A DNA stretch of 12,945 nucleotides from a virus. Taxonomy: Duplodnaviria; Heunggongvirae; Uroviricota; Caudoviricetes. The translations under genes and the position numbers were made by a program. Positions 1,288 through 8,142 of the stretch are shown piece by piece. The notes under the pieces were generated by a model, which saw only the letters and a program-made list of their open reading frames with translations, was not told the origin of the DNA and ran no database searches. The stretch covers positions 1 through 12,945 of IMG/VR virus record IMGVR_UViG_2778261277_000020; one strand, given 5' to 3'. Each line of letters starts with the position of its first letter. Within the stretch, counting starts at the first letter, position 1.

Positions 1288-3672
1288 TTAAAAATCAGCC
1301 TGACTCGGGATCAGTTTTTGCCAGATAACTGAAACGTATTTTGCCTGGTAACGGGCGTCATCAAGTGCATTATGGCGCTCACCTTCGAATGGAATAGCCG
1401 TTCTGGCATCGAAGTCTATGGCTTTCCCCAGCTCAACGATTGTGCGTACATCGCGATCGTTGTGGTAGCGCCACGGGCAGGGGATCCCCTGCCGTTCATA
1501 TGAACGGCGTAAAATTACGTTGTCGAAGTTGGCTCCATTTCCCCAGACCTGAACAAAAAATTCACCGGAGTTTTCGGCGATAAATTCCCGCAATTGCAGT
1601 AGTGCATCATCTAACGGGATTTCATCGGTCAGAATGGTAGATTGCGCCTCGCGTGATTGCTTAAGCCACCATTTAATGGTGCCACGATCAATGACTCCGC
1701 CAGCAGTATCCAGATCGATGGTCTTACTAAATTCCGGTCCCATATCTCCGGTTTGCGGATCGAAAAATATTGCACCTATTGAGATAATCGGCGCATCAGG
1801 ATTTTTTCCCATCGTTTCAAGGTCGATCATTAGATGGTCACACGTCCTGCTGGTGGATGTGATAACGTGATGACCATTCACCGTAATTAAGGGATCTGTC
1901 GTCTCGCCAGTTTCACTATCGCTGGCGTGGTCCTGAGCGCTGCCAGCATTCTCCTTGTGTGGATGTTCAGCGCCTTCCATTTCCTCCGGATCTTTTTCCT
2001 GAGCTTCAGCCTGATTTTCTTTATCGAATGTTTCCTGGTATGTTGCGTCGCCCATCACTGCGCCACAATCAGGGCAGTTGCCTCCTCCCGGCTGACCGCA
2101 GGTATCGCAGACTTTCTCCTGCACAGGTTGATTTTCGACGTCGCTATTTTCCGTTTTTTCGACTTCATCTGAGAGGATTTGATGGCCGGGAATCCATTTC
2201 GGATCATTCGGGTCGCTAATCCCTTCAACAAATTCTCCGCGAGAGGCAGCCAGCAACTTATCGGCGTCAGGCTGGCTGACGTTTGCTGCCTGCATAATTT
2301 TGTTTACTTCGTTAGCGGTAACTTTTACCTGATTGACGGGATTTACCTGTGACTGAGCATCCAGCGGCTGCGTGTCCTGATGATGTTCAGTTGCATCCGG
2401 TTCCATTGTTTCAGCCGCTGCCTGTTCACATGCCATTGCGCCAGATGGTTGCGGTTTTTCTGCATCATTTTTTTCTTCTTCTGTTTCTTGCCCGGCAGCC
2501 AGCTCGCGGTTTATTTCTTCCAGAATATCTTTTTCCGGTGTATGTCGGGCAGCCGTGAGTGTTTCCTGGCTGGGGTTCTCGTGATCAGTCTCCGTTAAAT
2601 GGGCGTTGATATACCCCTGAAGGCGTCCCGGGTAGTGATAAAATTCAGGGTGTGCGCTTCGGATAAGTGCAAAAATAGCGGCGCGAGAGTAGTCCAGGAT
2701 ACCCGGGGTTGAGCGAAGTGCTGCTGACCACTCCCTGAACGGACTTTCTTTCTTCCGGACGATTTCTTTTGCGCGGCGATAAACGCTGCCAGGAATGTCA
2801 TAAATATTAAAATCCATCGGAAGCGTGGCTGCTGCAATCTCCAGATCCAGTGTATCGAGGGTGTGTACTAAATCCGGATTACGATCGGTTTTGTTTCCGC
2901 CTCCGGCATTTGCACCGGAAGCCGTACGGGTGATACGCGAAACACGATTTCCTTTCATCCACTCTTTTGTCAGCAGGCCGCGATCGGTGTAGTCAGCGTC
3001 CAGGTATGCTTCGAAAAAAGCAGTCATTAATCCCAGACTGGAATTAACGGGATTAGGGAAAACTTTGTCAGTGTCGCGAACCAGTTTGTGGTGGTCGCGA
3101 AGTTCCAGTGGGTCGAGCAGGCTGGTTTTGTGCGAAATAGCCAGGGCAGTAACTGCCGGTAGCTCTTCAGCCCGAGCGATATGTAATGCCTGAAGTTCAT
3201 CTCTTGAAACGTGTGTTACTGGTTTTTCGCTGCCGTGTTGAGCAAGCCAACGGATTGCCACCTCCTGACCGGAAACTGGCAGGAGCATGCTCTCCTCAAT
3301 CTCCGTCATGTCTTCGCCGTTAACATTGGTATTTTCGGTGCTGGCTGGTTTGTTCTGCACAGAGGGAGATGGCGCGGTGAATACCATTGTGATGCCATCT
3401 TCACCGCCTTTTTCATAGCGGTTACAGAATTCGGTATCAAACACGCCTTCTGGTGGAAGGTCATTCACAACAGGCAAATGGACGCGAACAGGTTTTTTAA
3501 AGTCCTCTTCGTCGTAACCAGCATCATCCATTGCGACATTACCGCGGGAAACTGCAACAGATAATTTTTTTGCTGTAGTCCAGTAAAAACCTCCTTTAAT
3601 ACCGAGACGTTTTCTGACTTTGTCATTTTTGGCTTCGTAATGGAGTGCAATGTCTTGTTTGTCAGTGCTCAT
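1288..3672 (-). CDS. Exodeoxyribonuclease VIII-like protein (794 aa): RecE-like N-terminal/central region fused to a C-terminal DEDDh (DnaQ-like) 3'-5' exonuclease domain
   Basis: ATG at 3672 with GAGG 9 nt upstream. Central segments ([57 protein letters not shown], Cys-x2-Cys...Cys-x2-Cys [17 protein letters not shown]) match my memory of the E. coli Rac RecE N-terminal region. The C-terminal ~180 aa carry DEDDh motifs (MIDLETMG; [10 protein letters not shown]; HNALDDARY). Confidence 0.8.
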
Positions 3673-3707
3673 TGTTTTTAACCTCAGCTAAGATTAAAAT
3701 TCCTCCG

Positions 3708-3767
3708 GAATGATGAATAAATGTCCCAGGTTCATCATTCTGGCCTGCACTGAGTGCAGGCCTTTTT
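3708..3767 (+). terminator. Two adjacent hairpins; the second (GGCCTGCAC...GTGCAGGCC followed by T5 at 3763-3767) has plus-strand intrinsic-terminator geometry
   Basis: Hairpin A: 10-bp perfect stem GAATGATGAA / TTCATCATTC (3708-3740). Hairpin B: GC-rich stem 3742-3762 then TTTTT. The T-run is on the plus strand, antisense to the leftward operon. Confidence 0.4.
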
Positions 3768-3772
3768 ACCAT

Positions 3773-4048
3773 TCAGATTTCATCTTTTAGTTCTGTCCCA
3801 ATCAGAGAGGCCAGATACATGTCTTTTTTTTCTGCAGGCAGATTCTTAATGATATGCACCAGACACATTTTTTTAACACCATCGTTAAGTGTTTTAACAT
3901 TTCCTGAGAAACCGTAGATATCAACCACAGTGAATGGGGTTTCTTTATTTTCTGTCTTAATTACGTAGCCAATACGCTTTTCTTCAAGATTAACCTCGTG
4001 AACAATATTATCAGCAGTAACAGTAGTGACTTCATAACTGGTAATCAT
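3773..4048 (-). CDS. Hypothetical protein (91 aa)
   Basis: ATG at 4048 preceded by AGGAGAAAAAT (strong SD); ORF track start at 4096 is an upstream non-ATG extension. No recognisable motif. Confidence 0.55.
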   Translation of the reverse strand: MITSYEVTTVTADNIVHEVNLEEKRIGYVIKTENKETPFTVVDIYGFSGNVKTLNDGVKKMCLVHIIKNLPAEKKDMYLASLIGTELKDEI

Positions 4049-4132
4049 ATTTTTCTCCTTAATTAAGGTTGAGTGAATCCCTGCCATTGCTGGCATATAA
4101 GAATGAAACCGTACATTTGTGACGTAGCTGCT

Positions 4133-4324
4133 TTAAATACTTGTCGTGACTTCTTTATTATCCTGACGAATAACTTTATCAACCTGATAACAGTTACCTG
4201 GAATTTTCTGTTCTTCTGCAGCAGCCATGCATTCTTTCATGGAGTTGTATATTCCTGTAACTATATCAACCGGTTCACCGGAAACAAGAAAAACAGTCAT
4301 AACAAGCGCGAATACTGTATTCAT
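4133..4324 (-). CDS. Small protein (63 aa) with hydrophobic N-terminus (signal peptide or single TM helix), two Cys
   Basis: ATG at 4324 with GGAGA 5 nt upstream; start overlaps stop of upstream gene (TGATG). N-terminus MNTVFALVMTVFLVSG is hydrophobic. Confidence 0.5.
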   Translation of the reverse strand: MNTVFALVMTVFLVSGEPVDIVTGIYNSMKECMAAAEEQKIPGNCYQVDKVIRQDNKEVTTSI

Positions 4325-4509
4325 CAGTGTCTCCAGAAAATACCAAGTCTGAGAAGAGCCATTCTGGAAAGTATGGAATTATCATTGAGAAAATAAGGCT
4401 CATATTTCCTCATATTAATGGCATCTTCAGTAAACTCACGGTTACTGATTTGAACACCAATTTCAAAACAACCTTCAGATGTATTGATGTTGGGTAATAA
4501 CGTTTCCAT
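4324..4509 (-). CDS. Hypothetical protein (61 aa)
   Basis: ATG at 4509 with GAGGAA 8 nt upstream; lies 14 nt downstream of the rha stop; same-strand operon context. Confidence 0.45.
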   Translation of the reverse strand: METLLPNINTSEGCFEIGVQISNREFTEDAINMRKYEPYFLNDNSILSRMALLRLGIFWRH

Positions 4510-4523
4510 TATCGTTTCCTCGA

Positions 4524-5078
4524 TCAATGGATATTAAGTAACTGCTCCACGGTCATATTTTTAATTACGTCCCTGTTCACAAGCGTCCATCCCTGTTTCT
4601 CCAGATAAAAGCGGAAGGTATCCAGGGTGCAGACCATTGCACCATCAGGAACGGTTTCAGTGAATTTGATGTTGCCGTGTTCGTCGAGACGGATAACCAG
4701 GGTACGTCCGTCCCCGTGAATCATTTTGTCGGGAGACGGGGCGTTATTCTGGCGCAGTTCTTTCTCCATGCGATCGAACTCAGCGATGTAGGCTTCTTTA
4801 AATGCAGCGGCTTTTTTGCCGGTGAAGCCCATCACCAGGAAAACGAAGCCGTTTTTGGTGATTTGGTACATAGGGAGTTTGCGTCCTGTTGAGTCGGTGT
4901 ATTCGCTCGACACAAAATTGTGCTCAGTGAATTTTGCTGAACAGTCCAGATTGCGAATTTTATCCAACACTCGTTCGTGGCGTTTACCAAAGAACTCGGC
5001 GATCGCAACAGACGTAGTGACAGCGCGACCATTTTCGATGGTTACATCAGGGTGATAAATGGTAGGGGTAGTAGCCAT
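4524..5078 (-). CDS. rha: Rha-family phage regulatory protein (184 aa)
   Basis: N-terminal ~100 aa (IENGRAVTTSVAIAEFFGKRHERVLDKIRNLDCS...MYQITKNGFVFLVMGFTGKKAAAFKEAYIAEF) match the Rha domain as I recall it. ATG at 5078 with GGAGG 8 nt upstream. The 282-aa ORF in the track is an in-frame upstream extension that contains a terminator hairpin. Confidence 0.8.
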   Translation of the reverse strand: MATTPTIYHPDVTIENGRAVTTSVAIAEFFGKRHERVLDKIRNLDCSAKFTEHNFVSSEYTDSTGRKLPMYQITKNGFVFLVMGFTGKKAAAFKEAYIAEFDRMEKELRQNNAPSPDKMIHGDGRTLVIRLDEHGNIKFTETVPDGAMVCTLDTFRFYLEKQGWTLVNRDVIKNMTVEQLLNIH

Positions 5079-5244
5079 GATGGCAGCCTCCGCGATGAAT
5101 TTAATTAACTCACCACCAGAGGTGCTAATCTCATGGGTGGTGAGACGCACAGGGTTAGCACTACCGGTCATCACGGAACCCGGCCAGCCTTGCGGCTGCC
5201 CTGCACGCCTCACCATAATGCGAATGTGGCTGTGCTTAACGCAT

Positions 5245-5267
5245 AAAAAAACCGCCTGAGCGCGGTT
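5245..5267 (-). terminator. Minus-strand intrinsic-terminator-like hairpin (6-bp stem AACCGC / GCGGTT, 6-nt loop) followed by U7
   Basis: Plus-strand sequence AAAAAAACCGCCTGAGCGCGGTT at 5245-5267; on the minus strand this is stem-loop plus TTTTTTT. Confidence 0.5.
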
Positions 5268-5948
5268 ATGCGCCGTGATTGACTTCGGGGTGCTAATCCC
5301 GGCACCCGTTTTATGAGGTGCAGATGAACTATAATTCCACCCGTACTGGTTTTCAATAGCTACATTCAACATTTTCTCTTACCCTTCATCACCGAAGTGA
5401 ACTTTGTTGATGCAGTGCCTGGTGCCTCCAGGTGACGTTAACCAGTTAACAATTAACGCCGGAATACAGAAGTATGCCCGTTACGCCCCGTAAAAGACCA
5501 CTTTACGGTTTTAACTGTTCCGCGTGCGCTTAGCCGCATTCACCGCATCACAAAATTCACTTTAAAAAGGGTGGCAGAGCAGTCACGGAGTAGAACTGAT
5601 GCCACCAAAGACTACACATGGGTATTGTGGCGGGGCTGTCACTTAAGCGTATGGTCAACCTGACAACCCGGTGCATTTTCTGGAGCAATGGAGGAAACCC
5701 CAGCCATACTTACCGCCGCGCCATTTCGCGGATTGCCACAACCGGAAGCGCACGTTCGAGGAAATCTAACGACAAGCCTTCTAAGGGAAAGAGCTTCGCC
5801 GTACGCTTTCGCGTTATGCCCTGACTTTTCAGGGAAATATCCTTTCAGTAAACTGTCAGTACCGGATTCTTATCCGTGTCCGGCGCACGACCGCACGTGA
5901 CAGCGTGTTGGTCTCCATTTTTAACCCAGAACCTCAATGGAGGATAAA

Positions 5949-7234: not shown

Positions 7235-7522
7235 TCAGATAGAGGAGGGAAATTGTCGGCGAGCATGTATCACGCTTACAATCTCAATGCTTGAAGCAGC
7301 TACTCTGTACAGGATTATGTAGTTAGGGTGGGTCACTATCTCTCTCACCCCTGAAACCCGTTCGCTTAGTGGATATAGGTACGGATGCTCAGATAGAGGT
7401 AATACCGATGTTTCAATGCGTATTTTTAGTCTGCGCGCTGCCGGTGGGTTCTCCTTGGCGATGTAAGTTATGATCTGACGCAAATCATCGCGAGCAGATG
7501 GTAGCCATAAAATGGGTAACAT
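7235..7522 (-). CDS. parE: ParE/RelE-family toxin (95 aa)
   Basis: Sequence LRQIITYIAKENPPAARRL...IVSVIHARRQFP is typical of ParE toxins; start overlaps the antitoxin stop (TAATG). Confidence 0.85.
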   Translation of the reverse strand: MLPILWLPSARDDLRQIITYIAKENPPAARRLKIRIETSVLPLSEHPYLYPLSERVSGVREIVTHPNYIILYRVAASSIEIVSVIHARRQFPSSI

Positions 7523-7713
7523 TACTCGCTCCTGTTAGTTACAACGATTTGAGCAATAAGATTTTCCATTTCAGCCATTACCTCGTCATGTGGAATTGCG
7601 GGACGAGGGTCTGCAAGGCTCGACGCTACTTTAGCGCGCAACCATTCGTTGTAACTGTTTTCTTGTTCGATAGTTTCGAATTCTGAAACTATCGGAGAAA
7701 GGGCTGTACCCAT
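7522..7713 (-). CDS. paaA: PaaA2-like antitoxin (63 aa)
   Basis: SEFETIEQENSYNEWLRAKVASSLADPRPAIPHDEV matches my memory of PaaA2 from the E. coli O157 paaR2-paaA2-parE2 module; GAGGAG SD 7 nt upstream of ATG 7713. Confidence 0.75.
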   Translation of the reverse strand: MGTALSPIVSEFETIEQENSYNEWLRAKVASSLADPRPAIPHDEVMAEMENLIAQIVVTNRSE

Positions 7714-7740: not shown

Positions 7741-8142
7741 TCACGCCCGGCGGCTTTTTTGTGCCGCCAGCCACCGGGCAATGGTTTCTTCCATTGATTT
7801 TTTCTTGTCTTTGATTTCTTGAAGCATTTTTTCTTGGTCTTCCTCAGGGAACGCACTAAAAGCCTGGAGCAGTTCGCGTTGGCGAGGACCAATTTTCATC
7901 GTGTCAGGGGTGAAAATTTGCTCCCCCTCTTCAGGAGGCAATAAAAACCAATGCAATGGATGCCCTGTAACCTCAACCAGTTTATCCAAACTTGAGGCTT
8001 TAGGTGTAGCCTTACCGCTGACCCATTGTTGAACAGTTTGTTGTGTCACACCAATTCTACGGGCAAGCTCAGCCTGGCTCCATCCAGTTTCCTGAAGAAG
8101 CTTGCTGATTCTGTACATAGATACTTCTAGGGCGCTCATCAT
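7741..8142 (-). CDS. paaR: PaaR2-like / CI-like HTH (XRE family) transcriptional repressor (133 aa)
   Basis: N-terminal HTH (WSQAELARRIGVTQQTVQQWVSG); first gene of the three-gene cassette; divergent from a cro-like gene across a palindromic operator; no SD before the ATG (possibly leaderless). Confidence 0.75.
   Translation of the reverse strand: MMSALEVSMYRISKLLQETGWSQAELARRIGVTQQTVQQWVSGKATPKASSLDKLVEVTGHPLHWFLLPPEEGEQIFTPDTMKIGPRQRELLQAFSAFPEEDQEKMLQEIKDKKKSMEETIARWLAAQKSRRA

Follow-up and report, generated by a model that had tools for sequence, protein, structure and literature searches.

The window analyzed here is a 12,945-nt stretch of a virus record assigned to Caudoviricetes (IMG/VR IMGVR_UViG_2778261277_000020). 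On its minus strand, between rha and an exonuclease gene, lie three tightly packed small genes of 61, 63 and 91 aa. The first (4509..4324) is a dicB homolog, predicted to encode a cell division inhibitor with a window-type C-terminal variant. Its ATG at 4509 lies 14 nt beyond the rha stop codon (TGA, 4526-4524), and the Shine-Dalgarno (SD) sequence GAGGA (4521-4517), read directly from the DNA, is placed 7 nt 5′ of it. The second (4324..4133) is a homolog of ydfD (DUF1482) that is predicted to encode a lysis protein and has a GGAG SD (4334-4331) 6 nt 5′ of its ATG. The stop codon of dicB and the start codon of ydfD overlap as TGATG (4326-4322), so that the inhibitor and the lysis protein are likely to be coupled in translation. 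The third (4048..3773) is a racC homolog, predicted to encode a blocker of the retron toxin RcaT, and is preceded by the SD AAGGAG (4060-4055), again 6 nt 5′ of the ATG. It is separated from ydfD by 84 nt and from the start of the exonuclease gene (3672) by 100 nt. All three reading frames are intact, with well-placed SDs. An earlier note, made from the sequence letters of this DNA, had described the packing of the three genes, their good SDs and the coupling of the first two, and we confirm these features together with the coordinates and the strand.

A mechanical list of open reading frames gave longer versions of two of the genes. For dicB, a TTG start at 4527 (67 aa) was rejected in favor of the SD-preceded ATG at 4509, which is also where the family profile begins. 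For racC, an ATG at 4096 (107 aa) was rejected, as it has no SD. The 91-aa form is further supported by the PHROG profile, which starts at residue 17 of the 107-aa form.

The window contains 102 ORFs of at least 40 aa, and thus ORF length by itself is no proof that a gene is real. However, all three proteins match curated families (E = 5e-33 for the 61-aa, 6e-21 for the 63-aa and 4e-47 for the 91-aa protein). Comparison with the orthologs of Escherichia coli K-12 gave dN/dS values of 0.25 (dicB), 0.28 (ydfD) and 0.25 (racC), and the three genes are under purifying selection. The exact protein sequences are also widespread: the 61-aa DicB was found in 365 index blocks of public assemblies, the 63-aa YdfD on 180 contigs and the 91-aa RacC in 110 index blocks of public assemblies. 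Three plus-strand ORFs that lie antisense to the interval (4073-4396, 4327-4497 and 4227-4352) had no family matches and were rejected as genes. Searches of PDB sequences with each of the three proteins, and of the PADLOC defense models, returned no match. The earlier statement that none of the three is recognizable does not hold, as all belong to named families with experimentally studied K-12 orthologs. Similarly, the suggestion of nuclease-inhibitor or annealase activity found no backing, given that none of the proteins resembles the Gam, Bet/RecT or Erf families in Pfam, PHROG and NCBIfam profiles. In short, dicB, ydfD and racC are known genes whose exact sequences already carry names in public databases.

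The minus-strand gene order begins with a DicA-like repressor (7741-8142, minus strand; it shares the architecture of DicA, at 28% identity) and continues with a PaaA2/ParE pair, a DUF1391 protein, a 216-aa protein, DicF, isrK, C4 RNA and rha. From rha on, the order is dicB, ydfD, racC, the exonuclease gene, xis and int. The Rha-family regulator (4524..5075, minus strand) was identified by matches to Pfam Phage_pRha and TIGR02681. The true start of rha is likely the ATG at 5075, which has a GGAGG SD, whereas ORF callers extend the gene to 5372. RNA genes fall inside this extension: isrK occupies 5245-5321 and C4 RNA 5133-5220 (both minus strand). A promoter-like site of isrK (5356..5328) and the isrK terminator (5267-5250) are located upstream of rha-dicB. 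Further upstream, the DicF sRNA gene (5569-5620, minus strand) was detected with Rfam RF00039 at 61.1 bits (gathering score 48) and aligns with K-12 dicF. DicF marks the locus as a dicBF-type operon. DicA represses the dicBF operon of K-12, and the antirepressor Rem, urea and heat relieve this repression (PMC10448788). Regulation in the window is probably unlike that of K-12, because the isrK terminator and the C4/isrK module are positioned between DicF and dicB.

The exonuclease gene that follows racC (1288..3672, minus strand) encodes a 794-aa protein with a RecE N-terminal region and a DEDDh 3′-5′ exonuclease domain. Pfam matches are to Exonuc_VIII (aa 52-189) and to Rv2179c-like (aa 613-784). 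Residues 51-597 are 56% identical to residues 43-592 of RecE, and no match to the RecE C-terminal nuclease domain was found in the 794-aa protein. As judged from these matches, the exonuclease is a chimera in which an Rv2179c-like DEDDh 3′-5′ exonuclease takes the place of the RecE C-terminal nuclease domain. No annealase gene follows the exonuclease gene in the window.

The intergenic region between racC and the exonuclease gene (3673..3772, minus strand) is structured, with a predicted RNA fold of -35 kcal/mol (z = -3.5). It includes three hairpins, the first with arms at 3742-3751/3753-3762, the second with arms at 3705-3717/3731-3743, and the third an A/U-rich stem that covers the exonuclease SD. 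Compensatory changes preserve the first of these hairpins in the Rac prophage of K-12. We considered whether the hairpin past racC could be an intrinsic terminator in the sense direction and rejected this, as no U run follows it on the sense strand; the T run is on the opposite strand.

Comparison with the Qin and Rac prophages of K-12 clarifies how the locus is assembled. Window positions 5398-5889 match the ydfC-dicF region of Qin, and positions 4063-4535 match dicB-ydfD. These two segments abut in Qin, where dicF and dicB are spaced by ~175 nt, and thus the ~860 bp with isrK, C4 and rha that separates dicF from dicB here is absent from K-12. Directly downstream of ydfD, K-12 Qin has a ydfE pseudogene remnant, whereas the window has racC. 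The genes ahead of racC differ in turn from those of Rac: this slot is occupied by kilR-ydaE in K-12 Rac, by a YdaE-family gene in a Rac-like relative and by dicB-ydfD in the window. By its sequence, the locus combines, in mosaic fashion, the dicF-dicB-ydfD operon of Qin with the racC-recE pair of Rac, and the exchange of dicB-ydfD for kilR-ydaE ahead of racC is a module swap of two cassettes, each with a division inhibitor.

Both KilR of Rac and lambda Kil, which belong to early-left operons, are small inhibitors of host division encoded just upstream of recombination genes, the slot that is occupied by dicB here. The earlier note had placed the three genes in a kil-equivalent position, and with regard to the Rac slot this guess was right in spirit. 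The equivalence is one of position, as none of the three proteins matched a Kil family in the Pfam, PHROG and NCBIfam profiles, indicating no sequence relationship with KilR/Kil. The mode of action also differs, in that KilR is annotated as “inhibitor of FtsZ” in K-12 whereas DicB acts via MinC and ZipA (PMC6832061).

Taken together, the interval very probably comprises three known accessory genes in the early-left operon of an E. coli lambdoid prophage of the Rac/Qin type, and the sequence comparisons suggest that their products most likely act like the K-12 orthologs. We suggest that the genes be annotated as dicB, ydfD (DUF1482 lysis protein) and racC, rather than as “unknown small membrane proteins.”

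The 61-aa protein scored 112.9 bits with Pfam PF05358 (cut-off 27) and 105.7 bits with NCBIfam NF049927 (cut-off 100), and near-identical protein clusters carry the name “cell division inhibition protein DicB.” It shares 69% identity with K-12 DicB over 55 aa (residues 1-55), and residues 1-35 are nearly identical. The N-terminal block M-x-T-x-LPN-x-NTSEG-x-F...FT-x-DAI is present, with all 24 of the 24 invariant columns in an alignment of 18 sequences that includes K-12 DicB. The resemblance to DicB of Qin (b1575) extends to size (61 vs. 62 aa) and to context, as both genes are downstream of DicF and are followed by ydfD with an overlapping stop and start. However, the last ~25 residues differ, being YEPYFLNDNSILSRMALLRLGIFWRH in the window and QERELLNKICIVSMLARLRLMPKGCAQ in K-12. 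The K-12-type C-terminal segment is absent from the window protein, which instead has an alternative subtype common to many proteins annotated as DicB.

K-12 DicB binds MinC, and ZipA brings the complex to the septal ring, where FtsZ rings are depolymerized, and cells filament (PMC6832061). Moreover, the DicB-MinC interaction inhibits the inner-membrane proteins ManYZ and thereby excludes phages that inject their DNA through ManYZ (PMC6832061). By homology, we predict both functions, division block and exclusion, for the window protein. DicB of the window would bind host MinC, ZipA would take the complex to the septal ring, FtsZ rings would be dismantled and division blocked. The same DicB-MinC complex may inhibit ManYZ and so exclude phages that inject DNA via these proteins. 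The earlier note had named division inhibitors and exclusion factors among the small membrane proteins found at this position in lambdoid phages. The idea stands in that the window DicB is a homolog of a protein characterized as both, but the predicted inhibitor is the non-hydrophobic 61-aa protein and not the hydrophobic one with two cysteines.

The 91-aa protein shares 79% identity with K-12 RacC over 91 of 91 aa (E = 2e-50), and the PHROG family phrog_4778 covers residues 1-91 of 91 (E = 3.8e-47). The score against NCBIfam NF007306 (PRK09790) is 158.1 bits, under the cut-off of 171; the model covers a narrow subfamily, and the window RacC is a diverged member. Among 1.84 billion representative proteins, a profile search with RacC recovered only ~15 genuine relatives and no remote ones. 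A few weak matches, made of multiple stretches in very long proteins, were treated as spurious. All named RacC homologs from a preceding search are from Escherichia or Shigella, and given this and the small number of relatives, we conclude that RacC is a very narrow prophage family. As with RacC of K-12 Rac (b1351), the gene encodes 91 aa, is directly upstream of a RecE-type gene, contains poly-A tracts and has a conserved hairpin past its stop codon. Unlike in K-12 Rac, where the partner exonuclease has the RecE nuclease domain, the partner here has a DEDDh domain.

The poly-A tracts of racC (A8 at 3824-3831 and A7 at 3868-3874, minus strand, seen as T runs on the plus strand) are in frame in the window. 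In the relatives L012, L013 and L015, A7 is found in place of A8 and racC is frameshifted, and in an O121 relative the first tract is A9 and the annotation marks the copy as frameshifted. Many of the racC variants in databases are out of frame at these poly-A points.

In a genome-wide overexpression screen, K-12 RacC was the strongest blocker of RcaT, the toxin of retron-Sen2, and RcaT-Eco9 was blocked too (bioRxiv 10.1101/2020.06.22.160242). RecE, the neighbor of RacC, triggers retrons by degradation of msDNA, and the two have been described as a “blocker-trigger gene pair” (bioRxiv 10.1101/2020.06.22.160242; PMC11951105; PMC8632793). On the strength of the homology, the window RacC is predicted to have an anti-RcaT role. 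It would neutralize the RcaT of retron toxin-antitoxin defense systems, whose trigger is the degradation of msDNA by RecE-type exonucleases. Since a DEDDh 3′-5′ domain replaces the RecE nuclease domain at this locus, the “RecE trigger” logic of the literature may not transfer to it.

We considered whether the main role of RacC could instead be to pair with or regulate the RecE N-terminal region, or else the recombination module, with the anti-RcaT activity seen under overexpression being secondary. The synteny is suggestive of this. In the window, as in K-12 Rac, the O121 copy and the relatives L016 and L004-L015, the gene that comes right after racC always encodes the RecE N-terminal region, irrespective of the type of nuclease behind it. 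The exonuclease next to racC in L004-L015 has the DEDDh domain, as in the window, and L016 has a shorter RecE-family gene (~657 aa by coordinates) that is followed by separate Gam/Bet/Exo genes. The conserved structured intergenic region that joins racC to the exonuclease gene points in the same direction, as does the tiny size of the RacC family with its Escherichia and Shigella homologs. However, synteny alone cannot separate a functional partnership from the linkage of mosaic modules. In addition, RacC blocked RcaT without RecE, and Salmonella antitoxin-deletion mutants were rescued too (bioRxiv 10.1101/2020.06.22.160242). We therefore regard a primary role in partnership with RecE as unlikely, and favor RacC as a blocker of RcaT.

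A broader reading of the locus, which we offer tentatively and hold to be similarly improbable, combines several of these observations. The slot before racC-recE would be an exchangeable “host-division cassette,” RacC would track the RecE N-terminal region whatever the nuclease, and the A7/A8 tracts of racC could be a slippage switch. If this is true, it would follow either that the RecE N-terminal region is part of the real partner or trigger logic of RacC, or that retrons respond to the DEDDh chimera as well. Slippage at the A7/A8 tracts would then turn the anti-retron blocker racC on and off in populations.

The 63-aa protein scored 74.6 bits with Pfam PF07358 (cut-off 25) and shares 65% identity with K-12 YdfD along its full 63 aa; RefSeq names the K-12 protein “lysis protein.” Its exact sequence is named “DUF1482 family protein” at NCBI. 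Shared with YdfD of K-12 Qin (b1576; PF07358) are the length of 63 aa, a hydrophobic N-terminus, Cys32 and Cys45, the EQKIPGNCY motif and the coupled position behind dicB. Across 21 sequences, among them the window YdfD, neither the two cysteines nor the QKIPG-x-CY core varies. The C-terminal tails differ (KEVTTSI in the window against IEIPAGL in K-12), and C-terminal deletions of K-12 YdfD weakened lysis (PMC8835842).

When overexpressed, K-12 YdfD lyses cells; its residues 1-28 bind the cytoplasmic protein IspG, the MEP pathway is blocked, and the association with IspG is supported by pull-down and FRET evidence (PMC8835842). Lysis is prevented when DicB or SulA is co-expressed (PMC8835842), which implies that it requires active division. 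Cys mutants of K-12 YdfD still bind IspG (PMC8835842), and thus the conserved Cys pair is unexplained by the IspG model. From homology, a lysis function is predicted for YdfD of the window. The protein, translationally coupled to dicB, would bind IspG and block the MEP isoprenoid pathway, leading to division-dependent lysis that may be masked by the co-expressed DicB.

The hydrophobic N-terminus and two cysteines that the earlier note attributed to one of the proteins are those of YdfD, where the hydrophobic stretch V4-V14 spans 11 residues with a mean Kyte-Doolittle value of 3.0. The note took the protein to be possibly membrane or periplasmic. The hydrophobic segment is real, but this reading of it is weak, given its 11 residues, the absence of a basic n-region and its modeling as a beta-strand. 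Developed further, the idea would be that YdfD is exported or membrane-anchored, its N-terminus serving as a signal peptide or anchor, with a disulfide between the cysteines in the periplasm and a target in the envelope rather than IspG. The length of the V4-V14 core is that of a signal-peptide h-region, and the V-S-G/E-P just behind it conforms to the -3/-1 rule for signal-peptide cleavage sites. Export would also give the invariant Cys32 and Cys45 a role, for which the IspG model, with its binding-competent Cys mutants, offers no reason. On the other hand, the protein begins MNT..., with no basic residue ahead of the hydrophobic core, and 11 residues are too short for a membrane-spanning helix, which needs ~18 or more. 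AlphaFold2 predicted a compact beta-beta-alpha-beta fold (pLDDT of 87.7 for the best model; two of the five models were confident) in which residues 4-12 form a beta-strand that pairs with residues 18-26 and the N-terminal hydrophobic segment is buried (pLDDT 85-93). Moreover, the pull-down and FRET data for K-12 YdfD place the protein with cytoplasmic IspG, and the putative signal or anchor falls within the IspG-binding residues 1-28 (PMC8835842). In combination, these results make an exported YdfD quite doubtful, and we retain the prediction of a cytoplasmic protein that binds IspG.

The module rha-dicB-ydfD-racC-exonuclease recurs in prophages that have other immunity and replication genes, other integrases and other insertion sites. 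That the three genes are decaying cargo of a cryptic prophage, without current function in this element, is very unlikely: Qin and Rac of K-12 are both defective, frameshifts at the homopolymer tracts are common among racC copies and IS1 truncates dicB in the O121 relative, but here the three frames are intact with good SDs, dN/dS is ~0.25, identical proteins recur across these differing prophages, and int, xis, the immunity region and replication genes are still present in the window.

The significance of the locus beyond correct annotation is small. It is a tidy case of natural mosaicism, in which one apparently complete prophage combines a Qin-type division/lysis pair, a Rac-type anti-retron gene and a chimeric RecE/DEDDh exonuclease. 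What is mildly new is architectural only, namely the Qin/Rac mosaic, racC with a non-RecE nuclease domain and an RNA module between DicF and dicB. The locus also supplies natural variants with which published models can be tested: a DicB whose C-terminus differs, a dicB that is parted from DicF by the isrK/C4/rha module and a RacC alongside a non-RecE nuclease domain.

Among the RefSeq complete E. coli genomes, none covers at least 80% of window positions 3600-4700. As identical copies are present in draft and GenBank assemblies, this reflects a collection effect and not rarity. One contig of GCA_052067575.1 matches 12,048 bp of the window at 100% identity, and a second contig is 99.98% identical. 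Flanking genes there match Peptidase_M90 and the invasin-like IAT_beta domain. If, as we assume, these genes are mtfA and yeeJ, the element would reside in E. coli.

The 282-aa ORF called as 'Ash + Rha' (4524-5372, minus strand) contains two Rfam RNA genes, both on the minus strand within 5133-5372 and both scoring above their gathering thresholds. The isrK gene (5245-5321, 68.7 bits) has a promoter-like site (5356..5328) and a terminator (5267-5250) of its own, and is accompanied by a C4 antisense RNA gene (5133-5220, 81 bits). The Rha domain begins at an internal ATG at 5075, which has a GGAGG SD. Given the overlap with isrK and C4 and this internal start, the 'Phage_ASH' N-terminal part of the ORF is probably translated RNA sequence, which would make the ORF call over-extended. 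We take the isrK/C4/rha layout to be similar to the P1 immI and Gifsy-1 isrK-anrP modules.

The isrK-C4-rha module lies between the sRNA gene DicF (5569-5620, minus strand, 61.1 bits) and dicB, and the two are about 1 kb apart (region 4536-5620, minus strand). E. coli K-12's cryptic prophage Qin, in contrast, is without the module, and its segments matching the window abut. An STnc100-like match at 5403-5557 was weak and below threshold.

Downstream of the small genes, the 794-aa 'exonuclease' (1288-3672, minus strand) is a chimera. Its N-terminal region is 56% identical to RecE residues 43-592, but where RecE has its C-terminal nuclease domain this protein carries an Rv2179c-like DEDDh 3'-5' exonuclease domain. 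Between the 794-aa exonuclease gene and xis there is no annealase gene of the recT/bet type; in the related prophage locus L016, by comparison, separate genes for Gam, Bet and lambda-Exo come after a shorter RecE-family gene.

RNA folding of the racC-exonuclease intergenic region (3673-3772, minus strand) predicted three hairpins (z = -3.5). The first, with arms GGCCTGCAC/GTGCAGGCC, is maintained in the K-12 Rac prophage through compensatory changes. Because its T run is on the opposite strand, it does not have the appearance of a sense terminator, and that reading was rejected; rather, its form suggests a 3' structure with a stabilising role or a terminator acting on antisense transcription. 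In the predicted fold, the third hairpin extends over the exonuclease SD.

Within racC there are two poly-A tracts, A8 at 3824-3831 and A7 at 3868-3874. Three close relatives (prophage loci L012, L013 and L015) have A7 in place of the A8 and are frameshifted, and the first tract reads A9 in the O121 copy. Among 108 database clusters, many are shifted out of frame at one tract, some of them regaining frame at the other. The variation could reflect slippage-driven decay or phase variation, or the differences in tract length may be sequencing errors.

For YdfD (4133-4324), AlphaFold2 predicted a compact small fold (pLDDT 87.7; only two of five models were confident) in which the hydrophobic N-terminus is not a helix, residues 4-12 instead forming a beta-strand that pairs with residues 18-26. 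This model touches on the usual picture of the K-12 lysis protein.

None of the complete RefSeq E. coli genomes covered at least 80% of window positions 3600-4700 (1.1 kb, megablast sensitivity), yet draft and GenBank assemblies carry the entire prophage arm in identical form. Thus, the dicB-ydfD-racC junction seems to be absent from the RefSeq complete collection.

The head of the early-left operon encodes a ParE toxin (95 aa) and a PaaA2-type antitoxin (63 aa; pair at 7235-7713, minus strand), flanked by a DicA-like repressor gene and a DUF1391 gene, whereas in related prophages this position is empty or occupied by a HigB-type pair.
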